The notes under the pieces were generated by a model. That model did not search any database. It was given only the letters and a program-made list of their open reading frames with translations, and had not been told where the DNA came from. Shown in pieces: positions 117-45,830 of a stretch of DNA of 64,000 bases. The DNA is from Novakomyces olei (lineage: Eukaryota), in contig JADEYG010000007.1 in NCBI GenBank assembly GCA_016906335.1, positions 1,550,001 through 1,614,000 on the forward strand, read 5' to 3'. Position 1 is the stretch's first letter; each line of letters starts with the position of its first letter. The position numbers and the translations under genes were made by a program.

Positions 117-906
117 TCAGTCATTTTTTGATTGAAATAAATGACTTTGTTCAAATGCCTTATAGGCGGGCCGGTCGAGGCTCTTCTTGGCGACGTCGAT
201 ATCGGTTCGTATATCCCGTATTAAAGCTTCCTTTGACACATAATCATACTCTGGTCTAATATAACCTAAAAACAATACGCGTATCGTGGAACCATAAAAG
301 TCCTTTTCGAAAGATTTCATTATATGAATTTCCTTGACGTAAGAGAAGAATACAGAAATGTTTAAACCCAAAAAAAATAAAAAGATAGAAAAAAAAATAG
401 GGCAGAGAAAAGAGTTAAACAAAGGCAAAACCAGTTAAAGAGAAAAGCTCCTTAAACTCCAAAGGCAATACACCAAAACGTAATGGGAATAGACTTGATT
501 TAACGAATAATTACCACTGCGCGTTTCTCATTATGGTAGAAAGGATTCCATCCACAGCTGGCGACGTAAACAAAGTCAGTAAAAATACTCAGAGTAGCTA
601 ACATATCATTGGGAGCACAGGACCGTCTGCAATCTGTGCAAAGCCATAGTAAACGCCGCTCGGCTGTTGTGCTAAAACCGCAGGTATATCATCATCGCTA
701 ATATTCGCAGTCGGAATCCCTAATTCTTTCGAGCCACGGCCAAATCCGTGCACCACTGTGCCTTGGATGCTTATAGGAAAAGGCTCATTTGGATTTTCAG
801 GGCCGGCAATTGAAGGCCGGTCCTTTGCGTCTAGAGGCGGTACTCCCATACTACTCTGTCCGCCGCCTTTTCTATAATGTTGGAGTATATTTGTTATATG
901 CTCCAT
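117..906 (-). CDS. FMN1: Riboflavin kinase, 3 exons (906 or 849..607, 565..515, 332..117); intron 1 is AT-AC
   Basis: Motifs [23 protein letters not shown], spliced [19 protein letters not shown] and LGYIRPE. The start may be the second ATG at 849. Confidence 0.93.
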
Positions 907-11442: not shown

Positions 11443-11467
11443 TAACCCTAACTAACCATAACCCTAA
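11443..11467. promoter_or_regulatory. Paired teloboxes TAACCCTAA
   Basis: Two copies in the MHF2 promoter / GTR2 terminator gap. Confidence 0.6.
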
Positions 11468-13152: not shown

Positions 13153-13337
<185 letters not shown>

Positions 13338-13452
13338 CATTTACATTTACATTTGAAAATCTCCTGGTACAAAATTATACTGTCAATTTCTTTTTTATAG
13401 ATTACCGACACAACGTTACGAGCGCAATTTTTTGGTAAATCGGTCAGCGGTG

Positions 13453-18162: not shown

Positions 18163-21100
18163 CTACCGATACCACGGGGTCAGGACATCAAAGCTGCCTG
18201 TCCCCAGTTCGGCTACTTTACCCATAACCAGGCTGGCGCTAGGGTTGTGCAGCACATCAGTGTCCCCGTAAAGGGCAGAGTGAGTAAGGAAGTGGCACGT
18301 CGTTTCAAAGCTCATTTTTGCAAAAGGGCTGACGTTTGATTCAAGGCCCATACGATTAAATGGCTTGTACCCACCTTCAAAGGTCATGTAATCCGCAATC
18401 AAACTCAAATGACGCATATCCACACCGATGCCATAAACGCCAAAGACGGCAGATATTTCCCGCACAATAGCATTACGAGCGGCCTCGACTCCGTACGTAC
18501 GCAAAATTGCGGCAATATCGTTTGAGTAAATGCTGTCCACGTCAACAACATCCGAAAACTCCCAAAGTCCGTGGAAATTGACCCCCTCAGTCGACATGTT
18601 TCTCGATTTATCCATCTCCGAGGCCGGTGGGGCGATAAAGGCTCGCGTAATTCCCGCCAGTTCTTGAATGACTGTCAGCTGACAAGCCCGTTCCACAAGC
18701 GAGACCATTAGCAGCTTCTCTGTGTCCAACGGGAACTCGAGATCAATACGGAACCATTCGCCAGTTTCGTCGTCAAATTCGAAATCACGAATGTTTCCAT
18801 ACTTTTCCCTGATCGCCCAGAGTCGTTCCCTATTAAACTTTTGTTTCTGCCGTTGCAATTTGGCTTTTGCTTGGGATTCATAGTAGTGCCCTGCATCCTC
18901 ATCCGAGTCCATATTCATATCAAAATCCTCTTCAGCTTCAGCTTCAGCTTCAGCATTTGCATTTGCATTTACATTGCTTTTACTTTGGCGAGCACCGACA
19001 GCTTCCCGGGACTCCTCATCCTCCGTATCCGTCTCATAGTCGTCCGATTCTTGTGCGTTTTTCATTACCGCCTTATCCTCCTCGTCAGGCCCCTCGTAGG
19101 AAGCAAAATGCTTGGACCGGCTGGCCATCTTCATATCGGTAGCGTCTCCGTCCCCTTCTTCTCCATCGTCTGCGCCCGAGTTTCTTGCAGTTGAGGCCTC
19201 GTCAATCGGCCGTACTGCCCGGCCAACAATATCCATATCGGCATCGCCTTCCGTGCCCTGCTCACCCGCCTCGGACCGCACTCCGTGTCCCGTTTTCTTT
19301 TTTTTCAGTTCGACATTAATCACTTTGAGTAGAGAGCGTATAAAGGCAGTCTTGGCCACTGCCTCAACATCCGCCGGCCGCACAGCAAATTCGTCACCAT
19401 ACTCTGCCGCAGTGTACAGCTGAATGTGGATGGAGTACGTTTTCGTTTGCTCCTCGCTCCCGTACCCTTGCACTCTCTCCTTAACCCTAACCCTATCCGT
19501 AATTTCAGACAGTTTAAGCTTGCTAATGTGCTTGCAAAAGGCTCTTGCCGCCCCGTCCGACGTTGTGGGCAGTAGTGGCAGAGTCATTGCCGGTGTCTGG
19601 ATATTTGCACTCGCTGTCATGACAATCTCACGCAGCCGTGGGATTCCAAGGGTGACGTTTTTCGCTCCGAAACCGGCAAAATGAAATGTGTTTAGCGTCA
19701 TTTGTGTGGAAGGCTCTCCCACAGACTGACTGGCAAGAATTCCCACCATCTCTCCAGGCTGAACCAGCGCTCGCTGGTACTGTAAATTCATAAGCGCCCG
19801 GAAATCTTTAGTAGGCATTGCGTGCTTACTCTGCACTGCCGCCCGTACTTTTTCCCGATCTTTTTCGTCAACAATAGTTTTATTATCATCAAGAGAATGG
19901 TCCTTTTCTCTTTCTCTTTCTCTTTCTCTTAGCCTTTGCCTTTCACCCTCTCTTTTACCAGCCTTGTGCTTGGCGATGAGCAAGTTGTGAGGGTTGGCTT
20001 CAATGTACTCCTCGATTTCATGAGCGAATGCCTCAGAGACGCTGCCCAGGTACCGGCTGGGATCGTACTTGTCCATTACAGGACTGTACTTGCCCGGTTT
20101 CCGGAGTGCCTTCTTTGACAGAGCCGGTGCAGTATCCGTGTCCACTTTCCTGACAACGTCGGCAATATTAAGGCGTGCCAGGAAAGCCTGGCTATTGGCG
20201 ATATTGAAATCGAACTTTGTCAGATACATTTGCCGTGTGACATCGAGGGAGTCGTCGCCATAGTGGAACTGAACGACAGAGTTGTCACTGTCCCTGACGG
20301 TGTTGTCATAGTGCACTTTAATGCCCTCCAAGTGCTTTATAAGGCAGCGCTGGAGGTACCCGGACCGAGAAGTCTTTACTGCCGTATCGATCAGGCCCTC
20401 CCTGCCGGCCATACAGTGGAAGTAGTACTCTTGCGGGCCGATACCCGTCAAGAACCGGCCGGAAATAAACCCACCGGCTTTAGCACTGGTGTCAAACGGA
20501 GGGAAAGACGGCAGAGTCTTGCCGCTCACCATCACTGGCACTCGCCTGCCTTCCAGCTCCTGCTGGCCGAGAAGGCAGGAGATTTGGGACACGTTCACGT
20601 TGCTGCCTTTGGCACCAGACACGGTCATTGCCTGCATATGGTTGTGTGGGAACTGCCTCAGCAGACCACTGGGCAGGCAGTCGTCAATAATCCTCGTCCT
20701 CAGCGGAGCCAGTTTCGTCTTGAATGCGGCATCAAGACCGGCCAGCTTTTCGTCGTCCCTCAGCACCTGCTCCATTCGATCAAGCAGTTCCCTGTCACCT
20801 TTTTCTACACCTAAACTGCCTCTGCCTCTGCCTCTACTTTTGTCTAAACTGCCTCTGTCTAAACTGCCTCTGTCTAAACTGCCTCTGTCTAAACTGACCT
20901 TGTCCAGTCCGACATAGTCCCGGCAGGCTTCAAAGCCGTAAGCGGCTGCGTCCTTGAGCAGCTCTGCCCGACGAGGATCGCCATACTCTGCGTCCAATCG
21001 CAGATCGTCCATACGGCACGTGAACCCACGCATCTGTAGAAACGTAGTAAACAGCCTTCCCAGCGTCGAGAGCAGTCGGCCCGCTGAGGCAGAGCCCCAT

Positions 21101-22414
21101 ACTTCATAGACAGCGTGGACCATTCCGTAAGCACTCGCCCCATACTGCGACTTGTCAAGGACTCCGTGCAAAAGCTGCCCATCGGCTATTAGCACTGACG
21201 CCTCCTCTGGGCCAGTCGGGCCCCAGTACTTGCTCCCGACTTTGGACTTTGAGGTGACATTTATGCCTGGCAGGTAAGTATTACTACTGTAGCTTTTGCT
21301 ACTGCTGTTGCTGTAACTATTGCTGCCCTGATCGTCTATACTGTCACTCCCGACACGAGGCCTTAGATTCAGCAGGATTGTTGAAACTACCTGCTTGCCC
21401 GTCCACAGCCGCACTGGCTTGTGGATAGCCGGCTCCATCAGCTGGATATAGCCTTCCCTCCCACAACTGCCATCGTCGAACCGGAGGGCAGAGCAGACGA
21501 GCTGCTGGTACTCTCTCCGGGAAAAGAACGTGTCCCTGCTCGTCATCCACACTCCGCTGACAATATGGTCCTGGATAAGCCCACGCAGAGGGTCGCCAGA
21601 GGTTGGGACGAGGTACTGCGAGTCCGTATTGGCCAGCAAGACTGCCTCTGCTCTGGCAGCCTCGTTCTGTGGGAAATGCATATTCATCTCGTCACCATCG
21701 AAATCGGCATTGTACGAGTTGCAGTTGGCATAGTGCATTCTAATCGTCTTTTCTCCCGGTAAAATGCGTGCTCTGTGAGCCATAATAGAGGGCTTATGCA
21801 GCGTCGGCTGACGGTTGAGAAGCAACATGTCCCCGTTCAACAGATGCCGCAGTACTTTTTTGTTTGTATTGCTTACACGGTGCATTGAATCGGCTCCCAT
21901 ATGCTGAGCTGCCGCTGAAGGCTGCAGCGTAAGCAGCTGATTGGCCAGGGCAGTTCTCTGCTCAACACTGAGCGTGGCCAGAGCAATTAGCGACCCCTCC
22001 TCATTCTGCACGTGAGAGGCTCCAGGCCACTTGAAGGGACCATTGATTACTGCCCTGCGCAGCTGCCCTACATTGTACTGCGTAACGGGTTCAGGGTACG
22101 TCAGTTTCATGGCGAATACTGGAGGCACTCCTATCTCGTTTGTCTCTATATAAGGATCGGGAGATATTACAGAGCGGGCCGCATAGTTGACCCGCTTGCC
22201 CATCATGTGCTTACGAAAGAGACCCTCCTTCTTCTCCAGCAACTGCTTGATTCCGGGCGGAGGTTCTTTGCCCTGAGGCATTACCTGCGGATTACGATTG
22301 CTGTCCAGGAAACTGTTGACCGCGTTTTGCAGGATTGTAAAGCTTGCGACCAGCTGCTGGACTATACGCTGGCGGGCCTGGCCTACTGACTTTTCGGCTT
22401 CAATACCCATCTCT

Positions 22415-22448
<34 letters not shown>

Positions 22449-23832
22449 TGTCCAGGTCTAAATCGTCAGAGGAAGCCAGCTGAGCGTTCAAGTCACGGAT
22501 TCTCTCACTTGCCAACAGCACTTTGCTCAGCATATCATTCTGCACATTTTCATGCACTTCGTCGCCCATCTTTGACGGCGGACGGAACCGGGTAGGCGTA
22601 ACCGCCAGCAAGTGAATAAAGAACCTGTCTGCCGATACTTCAATACCAGTCTGGCTGCCAGATTGGCTGCCGGCCTCGCCTTCTATCCCAAACAGTTTCC
22701 AGGCGTCCCGTCCACCGTAAAGAATATGCACTAGCCGCCTTTCGCTCCTAAACAGCCGTCGCAAATGGTTACGGGCTTCAGTGGTTGAAATAACCCTTGA
22801 GCCAGGAGCGTTCTTGTGCCTCAAGCTTGCCTTTTCTCCTTCAGTTTCCGCGACAAGGCCATTACTCGGCCCGTTGATTTCAGACTGAAAAACACTGGGC
22901 CTGTGCTTGCCCATGCCGTCCATCAGCTCTTGGTGCTTGGTGGGCAGCTTGTTTTCAAAAATTGTAACTGCTCCGTCCCGTCGTAGAGAGGGCGAAATGC
23001 CTCCACAGTTTTCACATCTTTTCCTCGATAAGATCAGTTTGAGAAAGTCTTTAATGCACTGCCGACGTTCCTCAAACAGCGCGCTTGAAAGCGTCTCGTC
23101 TTCGTCTCGCAGCTTTTTGGCAGCAAGTGCCTCCTCCACAAACTTTTCACGGCGCCTAATCAATGCTGAGCCATCTCGCACTTCATCCTCATCTGCCGCA
23201 CTTTCGTTCCCAGAATCCTGATCGCGTTTAGCCGCCAAAGTAGAATGTTCGGCAATGTGTATCTGATCAACAGCACTCGCCTCGAGCGACAGTCCTGCGC
23301 CCAATAACGTTAATTTGCAAATGTACCTATGCACCTCCGTTTTCAGCAGTCTGAAATGATGGCAGTAAAGGCACATGGACCGCATTAAATGGAACATTTG
23401 GCCGAAAAACATGGGATTGTACGCAGGAATGGGCAGGGAAATATGGCCAAAATGACCAGGGCAAAACCGTTCGTCCATCCTGCATGTTGCGCACCTGTAA
23501 CGTTAGACGGGAAAGTTCTAGAGGCAAGATTGCACCAAACCCACACGGGCCTAACTGGCACAAAGACACAGTAAAAAAAAAAGACTGAAAATTAAAAGGA
23601 TGCAAAAGCTGAGAGACGAAAGCGGCTGCGGAGGGGGTACTTACAACGATCCACGGCCAAGGTAGGGCCCAAGTGCCGTATCATATAGTCCGCCTGGTGT
23701 AGGGTGGCCAAGATTGTCAAGCAGCACAGGATTGTTGATTTCCTTTACAGAAATACGCCGTATTTCGTCCTGACTATAAAAGCCGAATTGTACACTTGAA
23801 ACCTCTGCGCCCACCGGCTGCGCAGTGTTCAT
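18163..23832 (-). CDS. RPA190: RNA polymerase I largest subunit, intron 23495-23644
   Basis: GGLYDTALG, CATC..CPGHFGHI, KKEGLFRKHMMGKRVN, catalytic NADFDGD and TQMTLNTFHFAG. Confidence 0.98.
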
Positions 23833-30792: not shown

Positions 30793-31141
30793 ATTACAAT
30801 AATTACAATAATTACAATAATTACAATAATTACAATAATTACAATAATTACAATAATTACAATAATTACAATAATTACAATAATTACAATAATTACAATA
30901 ATTACAATAATTACAATAATTACAATAATTACAATAATTACAATAATTACAATAATTACAATAATTACAATAATTACAATAATTACAATAATTACAATAA
31001 TTACAATAATTACAATAATTACAATAATTACAATAATTACAATAATTACAATAATTACAATAATTACAATAATTACAATAATTACAATAATTACAATAAT
31101 TACAATAATTACAATAATTACAATAATTACAATAATTACAA
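30793..31141. repeat. (ATTACAATA)n 9-bp tandem repeat, about 39 perfect units
   Basis: Read directly. Confidence 0.99.
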
Positions 31142-39210: not shown

Positions 39211-39263
39211 TAACCCTAAACCTAACGCTAATGATACCACTATGTACCAAGTGGTAACCCTAA
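39211..39263. promoter_or_regulatory. Paired teloboxes TAACCCTAA
   Basis: Two copies between the Vip1-like gene and the MFS gene. Confidence 0.55.
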
Positions 39264-42937: not shown

Positions 42938-42956
42938 TTAGGGTTTGTTAGGGTTA
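42938..42956. promoter_or_regulatory. Paired teloboxes TTAGGG..TTAGGGTTA
   Basis: Immediately upstream of HOT13. Confidence 0.55.
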
Positions 42957-45590: not shown

Positions 45591-45657
<67 letters not shown>

Positions 45658-45830
45658 CTCTCTTTACATTCTTAAACGTTTCTATATTTCATTATATTCA
45701 TATATTATATTCATATATTATATTCATATATCATATTCATATATCATATATCATATATCATATATCATATATCATATATCATATATATCATATATCATAT
45801 ATCATATATATCATTATATTATAATAATAA
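45589..45830. repeat. Compound microsatellite (TA)n, (CT)n, (ATATC)n
   Basis: Read directly. Confidence 0.95.

Follow-up and report, generated by a model that had tools for sequence, protein, structure and literature searches.

The window, that is, the whole 64-kb stretch of Novakomyces olei DNA that was analysed, carries on its minus strand, at positions 849..117, a gene of three exons. The sequence supports the assignment of its product as a riboflavin kinase, which is predicted to phosphorylate riboflavin to FMN. The gene is organized as follows:

Exon 1, 607..849, minus strand: begins with ATG at 849-847 and comprises 81 codons (MGVPP...GPVLPM); identified by Pfam Flavokinase and by tblastn of the spliced product onto the window.
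Intron 1, 566..606, minus strand: 41 nt, AT..AC termini.
Exon 2, 515..565, minus strand: 17 codons, carries the invariant S-x-G-W-N-P motif; identified by column counts and tblastn.
Intron 2, 333..514, minus strand: 182 nt, GTAATT...CAAG, a canonical GT-AG intron.
Exon 3, 117..332, minus strand: 71 codons followed by the stop codon at 119-117, ending in ...KND*; identified by Pfam Flavokinase.

The Pfam Flavokinase profile PF01687 matches residues 25-80 of exon 1 (profile positions 3-54 of 124, E 2.5e-12, 47.5 bits) as well as exon 3 (profile positions 74-124 of 124, E 3.3e-12, 47.2 bits), both above the curated cut-off of 19.6 bits, and the middle of the profile, which is matched by neither of the two exons, is the part supplied by exon 2. 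After removal of the 41 nt from 606 to 566 all 169 codons are open, and the spliced product contains the residues that are invariant in the family according to column counts among fungal homologs, i. e. Y67, G69, M81, S84, G86, N88, P89, N93 and E99. With respect to intron 2, the donor GTAATT is weak and there is no YTRAY branch motif near the 3' end; the sequence TCTTAC is located 7 nt before CAAG.

Upstream of the riboflavin kinase gene, a divergent gene is located at 1200-1928 on the plus strand; it encodes a signal-peptide-like N-terminus (MKASTTFFVLGLFGIVSA...) and has an apparent intron of 42 nt (GTAAGT...CTAG, 1515-1556). The divergent promoter common to the riboflavin kinase gene and this plus-strand gene at ~1200 contains, 75-88 nt upstream of the riboflavin kinase ATG, a pair of the telomere-like octamer AACCCTAA (= TTAGGGTT). 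This octamer is present 12 times in the window as compared to 1.79 expected occurrences, and none of 100 shuffles reached 12. It is often found in close pairs (924-937, 11444-11467, 39212-39263, 42938-42955; single copies at 2135, 17052, 18148 and 19483), and it presumably resembles the Tbf1/Teb1-type promoter sites of yeasts. The window also contains a perfect 9-base array (ATTACAATA x 38.8, 100% matches, 30793-31141), (ATT)63 at 13153-13341 and an imperfect (TA)113 at 45591-45823, all of them microsatellites of a length and purity unusual in a compact fungal genome.

The junction between exons 1 and 2 is the subject of this study. Here the minus strand reads CCA ATG (609-607), then ATATGTTAGCTACTCTGAGTATTTTTACTGACTTTGTTTAC (606-566, 41 nt), and then GTC GCC AGC TGT GGA TGG AAT CCT TTC TAC. 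The original prediction for this DNA had proposed an AT..AC segment of 41 nt at 566-606, and both its coordinates and its letters are exact on the minus strand. The segment begins with AT at 606-605 and ends with AC at 567-566, and it contains the following elements:

Putative 5' splice site ATATGT, 601..606, minus strand: preceded by the exonic ATG; positions +2 to +6 (TATGT) fit the local GTA[AT]GT.
In-frame TAG, 598..600, minus strand: closes the reading frame of exon 1 when intron 1 is not removed.
Branch-site-like TACTGAC, 575..581, minus strand: branch A at 576, 10 nt from the last intron base, followed by the U-rich CTTTGTTT.
Putative 3' splice site TAC, 566..568, minus strand: the analogue of YAG; no other AC at a usable distance lies closer to the branch site.

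Exons 1 and 2 lie in different reading frames in the genomic DNA, and the unspliced exon-1 frame ends after 83 codons at the TAG at 600-598, a stop codon noted in the original prediction as well. Since the unspliced frame stops at this codon, splicing would be obligatory for any enzyme made from the gene at 849..117.

To judge these signals we compared them to the other introns of the host. The set consists of 13 local GT-AG introns, i. e. intron 2, which is supported by homology, and 12 introns picked by eye, and thus subjectively, from 65 ORF-joining candidates. The local introns are 39-268 nt long, five of them 39-55 nt, and their donors read GTAAGT, GTATG. or GTACGT (consensus GTA[AT]GT). 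Among the 13 donors, T is present at +2 in 13/13, A at +3 in 13/13, T at +4 in 3/13 (A in 9/13), G at +5 in 12/13 and T at +6 in 9/13, with the counts at +3 and +5 being partly biased by the pre-selection of 12 of the 13 introns for GT[AG][ACT]G[TAC]. The local branch sites are CTAAC, CTAAT, CTGAT or TTAAC/T, and they are located 7-17 nt (median ~8.5) before the YAG end. The length of intron 1 (41 nt), the TATGT at +2 to +6 and the 10-nt distance between the branch A of TACTGAC and the end are all within this range. Judged by these features, the first and the last base are the only positions that set the putative intron apart from the normal local introns. A looser ORF-joining scan, intended to detect AT-AC introns elsewhere in the window, had no power to discriminate between classes of termini: GT..AG pairs were found 91 times, as compared to AT..AC 87, AT..AG 75, GT..AC 73, TT..AC 103 and CT..AG 66.

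Which removal restores the protein was addressed by two enumerations that were scored with a profile HMM built from 114 of the 120 listed fungal homologs, those of 140-260 residues being kept. The first enumeration allowed any termini and covered all in-frame removals of 0-89 nt with donors at 650-586, resulting in 1388 models. The AT..AC model at 606..566 (41 nt, junction PMVASC) ranked first with 250.6 bits. Removals of 41 nt shifted by 1-6 bases scored 249.5-248.9 bits with the junctions PMICSC, PMIASC and PMISSC; the margin is thus small and rests mainly on the presence of Val82 rather than Ile. The AT..AC model is top-ranked because the columns of the homologs favour the junction ATG|GTC: the residue corresponding to M81 is conserved in 114/114 homologs, V82 in 111/114 (with Ile never found), and S84 in 112/112 filled rows, and only this junction keeps M81, V82 and S84 jointly among the 1388 models. 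The spliced motif matches the family at M81, V82, S84, G86, N88 and P89, whereas two of the twelve motif residues deviate from the family majority, A83 (M in the family) and C85 (L/V/I in the family).

The shifted removals represent an alternative in their own right, an intron of 41 nt whose non-canonical ends are of a different kind and located a few bases away, as in the GT..CG model at 602..562 (PMISSC) or in the TA..CG, AT..GT and TG..TC models (all PMIASC). They come within 1.1-1.7 bits of the best model, and the GT..CG version would even retain the canonical G at position 1. However, all of them replace V82 by Ile, a residue present in 0/114 homologs, the donor GTTAGC has a T at +3, which occurs in 0/13 local introns, and, in contrast to AT-AC, these terminal pairs have no known mechanism and form no recognised class. 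We therefore regard shifted ends as very unlikely.

The second enumeration was restricted to GT-AG, GC-AG and AT-AC pairs between 846 and 520 (donors 846-576, acceptors down to 521). It yielded 498 pairs, of which 158 were in frame; the AT..AC pair at 606..566 came first, and a GC..AG pair at 598..558 was second. No GT-AG pair of intron-like size that restores the frame was present among the 498 enumerated pairs. The best in-frame GT..AG pair, 623..598, spans only 26 nt, deletes P80-M81, is too short and lacks a branch site. Two pairs with familiar termini overlap the AT..AC segment:

GTTAGC..CAG, 558..602, minus strand: 45 nt, puts exon 2 out of frame; the product stops after 100 residues and lacks GWNPFY.
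GCTACT..CAG, 558..598, minus strand: 41 nt, in frame, gives PMICYCGWNPFY; V82 and S84 are replaced.

The 5' border of the former pair is 4 nt, and its 3' border 8 nt, away from the corresponding border of the AT..AC segment, and an mRNA spliced at this pair would be frame-shifted and run into a premature stop codon. The original prediction had argued from the reading frame that this GT..AG pair shifts the frame and destroys GWNPFY, and this part of the argument stood; the in-frame GC..AG pair had been overlooked. GC-AG introns are a commoner non-canonical class. The GC..AG removal is also 41 nt long, it avoids the TAG, the G of which falls inside the intron, and the distance from TACTGAC to the AG would be 18 nt, which is near the local maximum of 17. 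The resulting junction is PMICYC, with a score of 245.5 bits, 5 bits below that of the AT..AC model; V82 (conserved in 111/114) is changed to Ile and the invariant S84 (112/112) to Tyr. Moreover, the donor GCTACT has T at +3 where the local introns have A (13/13), and C at +5 where they have G (12/13). As a rule, GC donors require the rest of the site to match the consensus almost perfectly, according to the available text of PMC1557818, and the donor GCTACT is far from a strong, GCAAGT-like site. An intron with GC-AG ends is therefore improbable.

How often an intron-like AT..AC segment arises by chance was estimated with a pattern for 41-mers that start with A followed by T[AG][ACT]G[TAC], contain YTRAY 5-15 nt before the end, and end with AC. 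Such 41-mers were found ~4.2 times per 128,000 shuffled positions (~3e-5 per position) and three times in the real window, so that there is no enrichment of intron-like AT..AC 41-mers in the window (3 observed vs 4.2 in shuffles). The chance of finding such a 41-mer at the junction picked by homology is ~3e-5. The strength of this argument thus comes from the coincidence of the 41-mer with the junction defined by homology, and not from enrichment.

The comparison with relatives bears on the junction in a different way. Among 80 metagenome loci that encode relatives (best identity 57%), 74 are covered over residues 72-92 of the spliced product by one alignment, in which the residues of M-V-x-S-x-G are spaced identically. 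Gaps are present in 19 of these 74 alignments, and the insertions are in the variable loop before P80-M81, the exception being a gap of one residue after V82; the distances within M-V-x-S-x-G-[WY]-N-P do not vary among the 74. An intron at residues 81/82 was found in none of the 80 loci, and thus the position of the AT-AC intron is not known to be old. In contrast to intron 1, intron 2 is common to several fungi, since four of the metagenome loci (L022, L025, L036, L045) are split at residues 98/99, the position of this intron. Intron 1 was not found in any other sequence among the relatives that were compared (proteins, the 80 metagenome loci and short ORFs), and these did not include a close relative for a comparison of intron conservation: the best identity of exon 1 was 61% to the longer proteins and 56% to short ORF-like proteins of 45-146 aa, among which the organism's own ORF was absent.

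The constant spacing also speaks to the idea that there is no splicing at all and that the ribosome shifts by -1 before the TAG into the frame of exon 2. This frame is indeed open from 688 to 500 and thus over the whole segment. Such a product would have ~13 extra residues between M81 and V82, exactly where the relatives keep the M-V-x-S-x-G spacing; moreover, the sequence contains no slippery heptamer, 626-546 does not fold more stably than shuffled sequences (z +0.87), and the segment carries a full set of intron signals. A ribosomal frameshift thus seems hardly conceivable.

It is also important to know whether the genomic sequence is correct. The DNA sequencing run X1 covers the stretch; it may be the source of the window itself and is thus not independent. 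The run X2 comes from another study, and a contig of 544 nt from this run (record 3) spans 213-756 with 0 differences and 0 gaps relative to the window. Two more X2 contigs, covering 60-219 and 737-939, are also free of differences. Short matches of 31-36 nt from X2-X4 at 568-616 have 4-5 mismatches and were treated as unrelated DNA. Since the X2 contig is identical, the AT and AC termini do not stem from an error of assembly or base calling in a single data set. The sole point in favour of an error in sequencing or assembly that masks an ordinary GT-AG intron or an indel is the rarity of AT-AC introns. The identity of the X2 contig across 213-756 and the fact that errors would be needed at two separate bases make such an error exceedingly improbable.

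If the letters are right, the copy at 849..117 might still be a decaying pseudogene, in which splicing is broken or the 45-nt GT-AG pair is used, with a working riboflavin kinase encoded elsewhere. Some fungi have 2-3 copies, and several species of the Mucorales recur among the listed homologs; in addition, most of the family has other residues in place of A83 and C85. However, the 169 codons are open after the removal, the invariant columns are all kept, and intron 2 is intact and canonical. The two changes are located exactly at the first and the last base of the intron, and they form the sole known compensating pair, which does not look like random decay. Moreover, tblastn did not detect a second riboflavin kinase copy in the 64-kb window, and each species of the Taphrinomycotina appears once among the listed homologs. 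We consider a pseudogene unlikely. The core of the original prediction, an AT-AC intron with U2-type signals the removal of which is needed to make riboflavin kinase, was thus supported by all tests that were run. In our view, 606..566 is likely to be an AT-AC spliceosomal intron that would be excised from the RNA at exactly the 606/566 borders by the major (U1/U2/U4/U5/U6) spliceosome, and its removal would be obligatory for riboflavin kinase.

Two lines of evidence bear on the assignment to the major spliceosome. First, intron 1 has no U12-type signals. The branch-site consensus of U12-type introns is TCCTTAAC; intron 1 reads TTTTACTGACTTTGTTTAC and contains nothing like this consensus 10-15 nt from its 3' end. 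Similarly, its donor ATATGTTA differs from the pattern /[AG]TATCCTT and from the U12-type donor consensus /ATATCCTT that is given in the available text of PMC5029451. Intron 1 resembles the U12-type AT-AC introns in its terminal dinucleotides and in its first four bases (ATAT), but it has neither a /ATATCCTT donor nor a TCCTTAAC-like branch site, and the host groups with the Ascomycota. Second, the phylogenetic position of the host was studied using the gene of the largest subunit of RNA polymerase I, which is located at 18166-23644 on the minus strand and has a 5' intron of 150 nt (23644..23495). The best database identity of this protein is 52-58%, to Saitoella, so that even 5.8 billion clustered proteins do not include a close relative of the organism. 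A quick maximum-likelihood analysis with 28 sequences places the host among the Taphrinomycotina together with Schizosaccharomyces, Taphrina/Protomyces and Pneumocystis (support 83-85% SH-aLRT) and outside of the Mucoromycota and Saccharomycotina clades, which are supported at 100%. For the Ascomycota, the surveys in PMC10639083 and PMC2396436 report, in the sections available, no minor introns or minor snRNAs. An Rfam search of the 64-kb window gave 0 matches. Since U12-type signals are absent and the host groups with the Ascomycota, which lack minor introns, we infer from signals and lineage that the major spliceosome would remove intron 1.

AT-AC introns of the U2 type have been described in other organisms. 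Wu and Krainer reportedly identified such type II AT-AC introns in 1997, for instance in the human genes SCN4A and SCN5A. According to the accessible text of PMC1557818, which defines the class by a U2 matrix for the 5' splice site in which A replaces G1, there are 24 of them among ~610,000 introns of five animal and plant species, and AT-AC introns have been hypothesised in xylanase genes of filamentous fungi. The metazoan donor consensus is given as /ATAAGT in PMC5029451, again for the available part. Like the metazoan type II introns, the riboflavin kinase intron combines AT-AC ends with an otherwise U2-type 5' site (ATATGT as compared to GTA[AT]GT in the host); unlike them, it reads /ATATGT rather than /ATAAGT, it is very short (41 nt), and its branch site is only 10 nt from the end. 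In annotations of fungal genomes, AT-AC introns are rarer than in animals and plants, as far as PMC7072748 is available.

The closest precedent is found in Schizosaccharomyces pombe. There, intron 1 of lea1 (SPBC1861.08c) was found to be an AT-AC intron by spliceosome profiling; it is constitutive, had previously been mis-annotated, was confirmed by RT-PCR, Sanger sequencing and RNA-seq, and is attributed to the major spliceosome in the accessible text (bioRxiv 10.1101/226894). Both introns are short, lie in the coding region, begin with A and end with C, and are, or would be, needed for the correct protein; both hosts belong to or group with the Taphrinomycotina, and, to the extent that the source covers it, S. 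pombe lacks the minor spliceosome and the lea1 intron was missed by standard annotation. The two introns differ in the gene and in the lineage (the RNA polymerase I of the host is <=58% identical to that of any member of the Taphrinomycotina), and the riboflavin kinase intron is known from DNA alone. Given this verified constitutive intron, the class is, on the evidence of this source, less exotic than the original prediction had implied. In Saccharomyces cerevisiae, RPL30 undergoes a nested AT-AC event that gives 1-2% of a side product inside another intron (PMC5029451, available part). As would be true of the intron studied here, AT-AC ends are used in an ascomycete without the minor spliceosome; the 5' site of RPL30, however, resembles no consensus as far as described there, whereas the AT-AC junction of riboflavin kinase would be the only productive splice, and its 5' site fits the host.

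The mechanistic basis for such introns is the interaction between the first and the last base of the intron, which the riboflavin kinase intron would share with a laboratory construct of the yeast actin intron. In 1993, Parker and Siliciano reportedly obtained an A1/C-last double mutant of this intron, in which the G1-to-A exchange was rescued by changing the last G to C. That an engineered AT-AC intron is spliced in yeast is cited from these authors in the available text of PMC5029451. Unlike the actin construct, the intron studied here would be natural, fixed, and located in a metabolic gene. In the literature collection that was searched, no paper combines riboflavin kinase with AT-AC introns; the fungal cases found in print, in the parts of the sources available, are the verified lea1 intron, the RPL30 side product and the hypothesised xylanase introns, and more may be listed in the supplements to the articles on S. 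pombe and S. cerevisiae. Splicing of AT-AC introns by the major spliceosome is thus an established, very small class, to which the riboflavin kinase intron most likely adds one case.

We propose that intron 1 probably derives from a GT-AG intron by exchange of the first G for A and of the last G for C. U1 and U6 would still read positions +2 to +6 (TATGT), and U2 would pair with TACTGAC. Since an A at intron position 1 suits a C rather than a G at the last position, the second step would take the AC 10 nt past the branch A. In this way, CCA ATG would be joined to GTC GCC, resulting in a riboflavin kinase of 169 residues with all family invariants. The suggestion of the original prediction that the AT-AC intron may be rate-limiting for FMN synthesis is speculative. 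A competition between the AT-AC junction and the GT..AG pair at 602..558, in which the ratio between productive and decay-prone mRNA acts as a throttle on riboflavin kinase, FMN and FAD, is conceivable but doubtful.

The intron sits in the gene for a housekeeping enzyme, in a lineage without a close sequenced relative. A gene finder that accepts only GT-AG and GC-AG introns would predict a truncated or wrongly joined gene, and an intact riboflavin kinase would seem to be missing from the organism. Further AT-AC introns of the major spliceosome that have been missed by annotation might exist in the same deep-branching ascomycete lineage. If true, the riboflavin kinase intron would be a second constitutive AT-AC intron in fungi and thus a natural confirmation of the rule that the first and the last base of an intron have to be paired.
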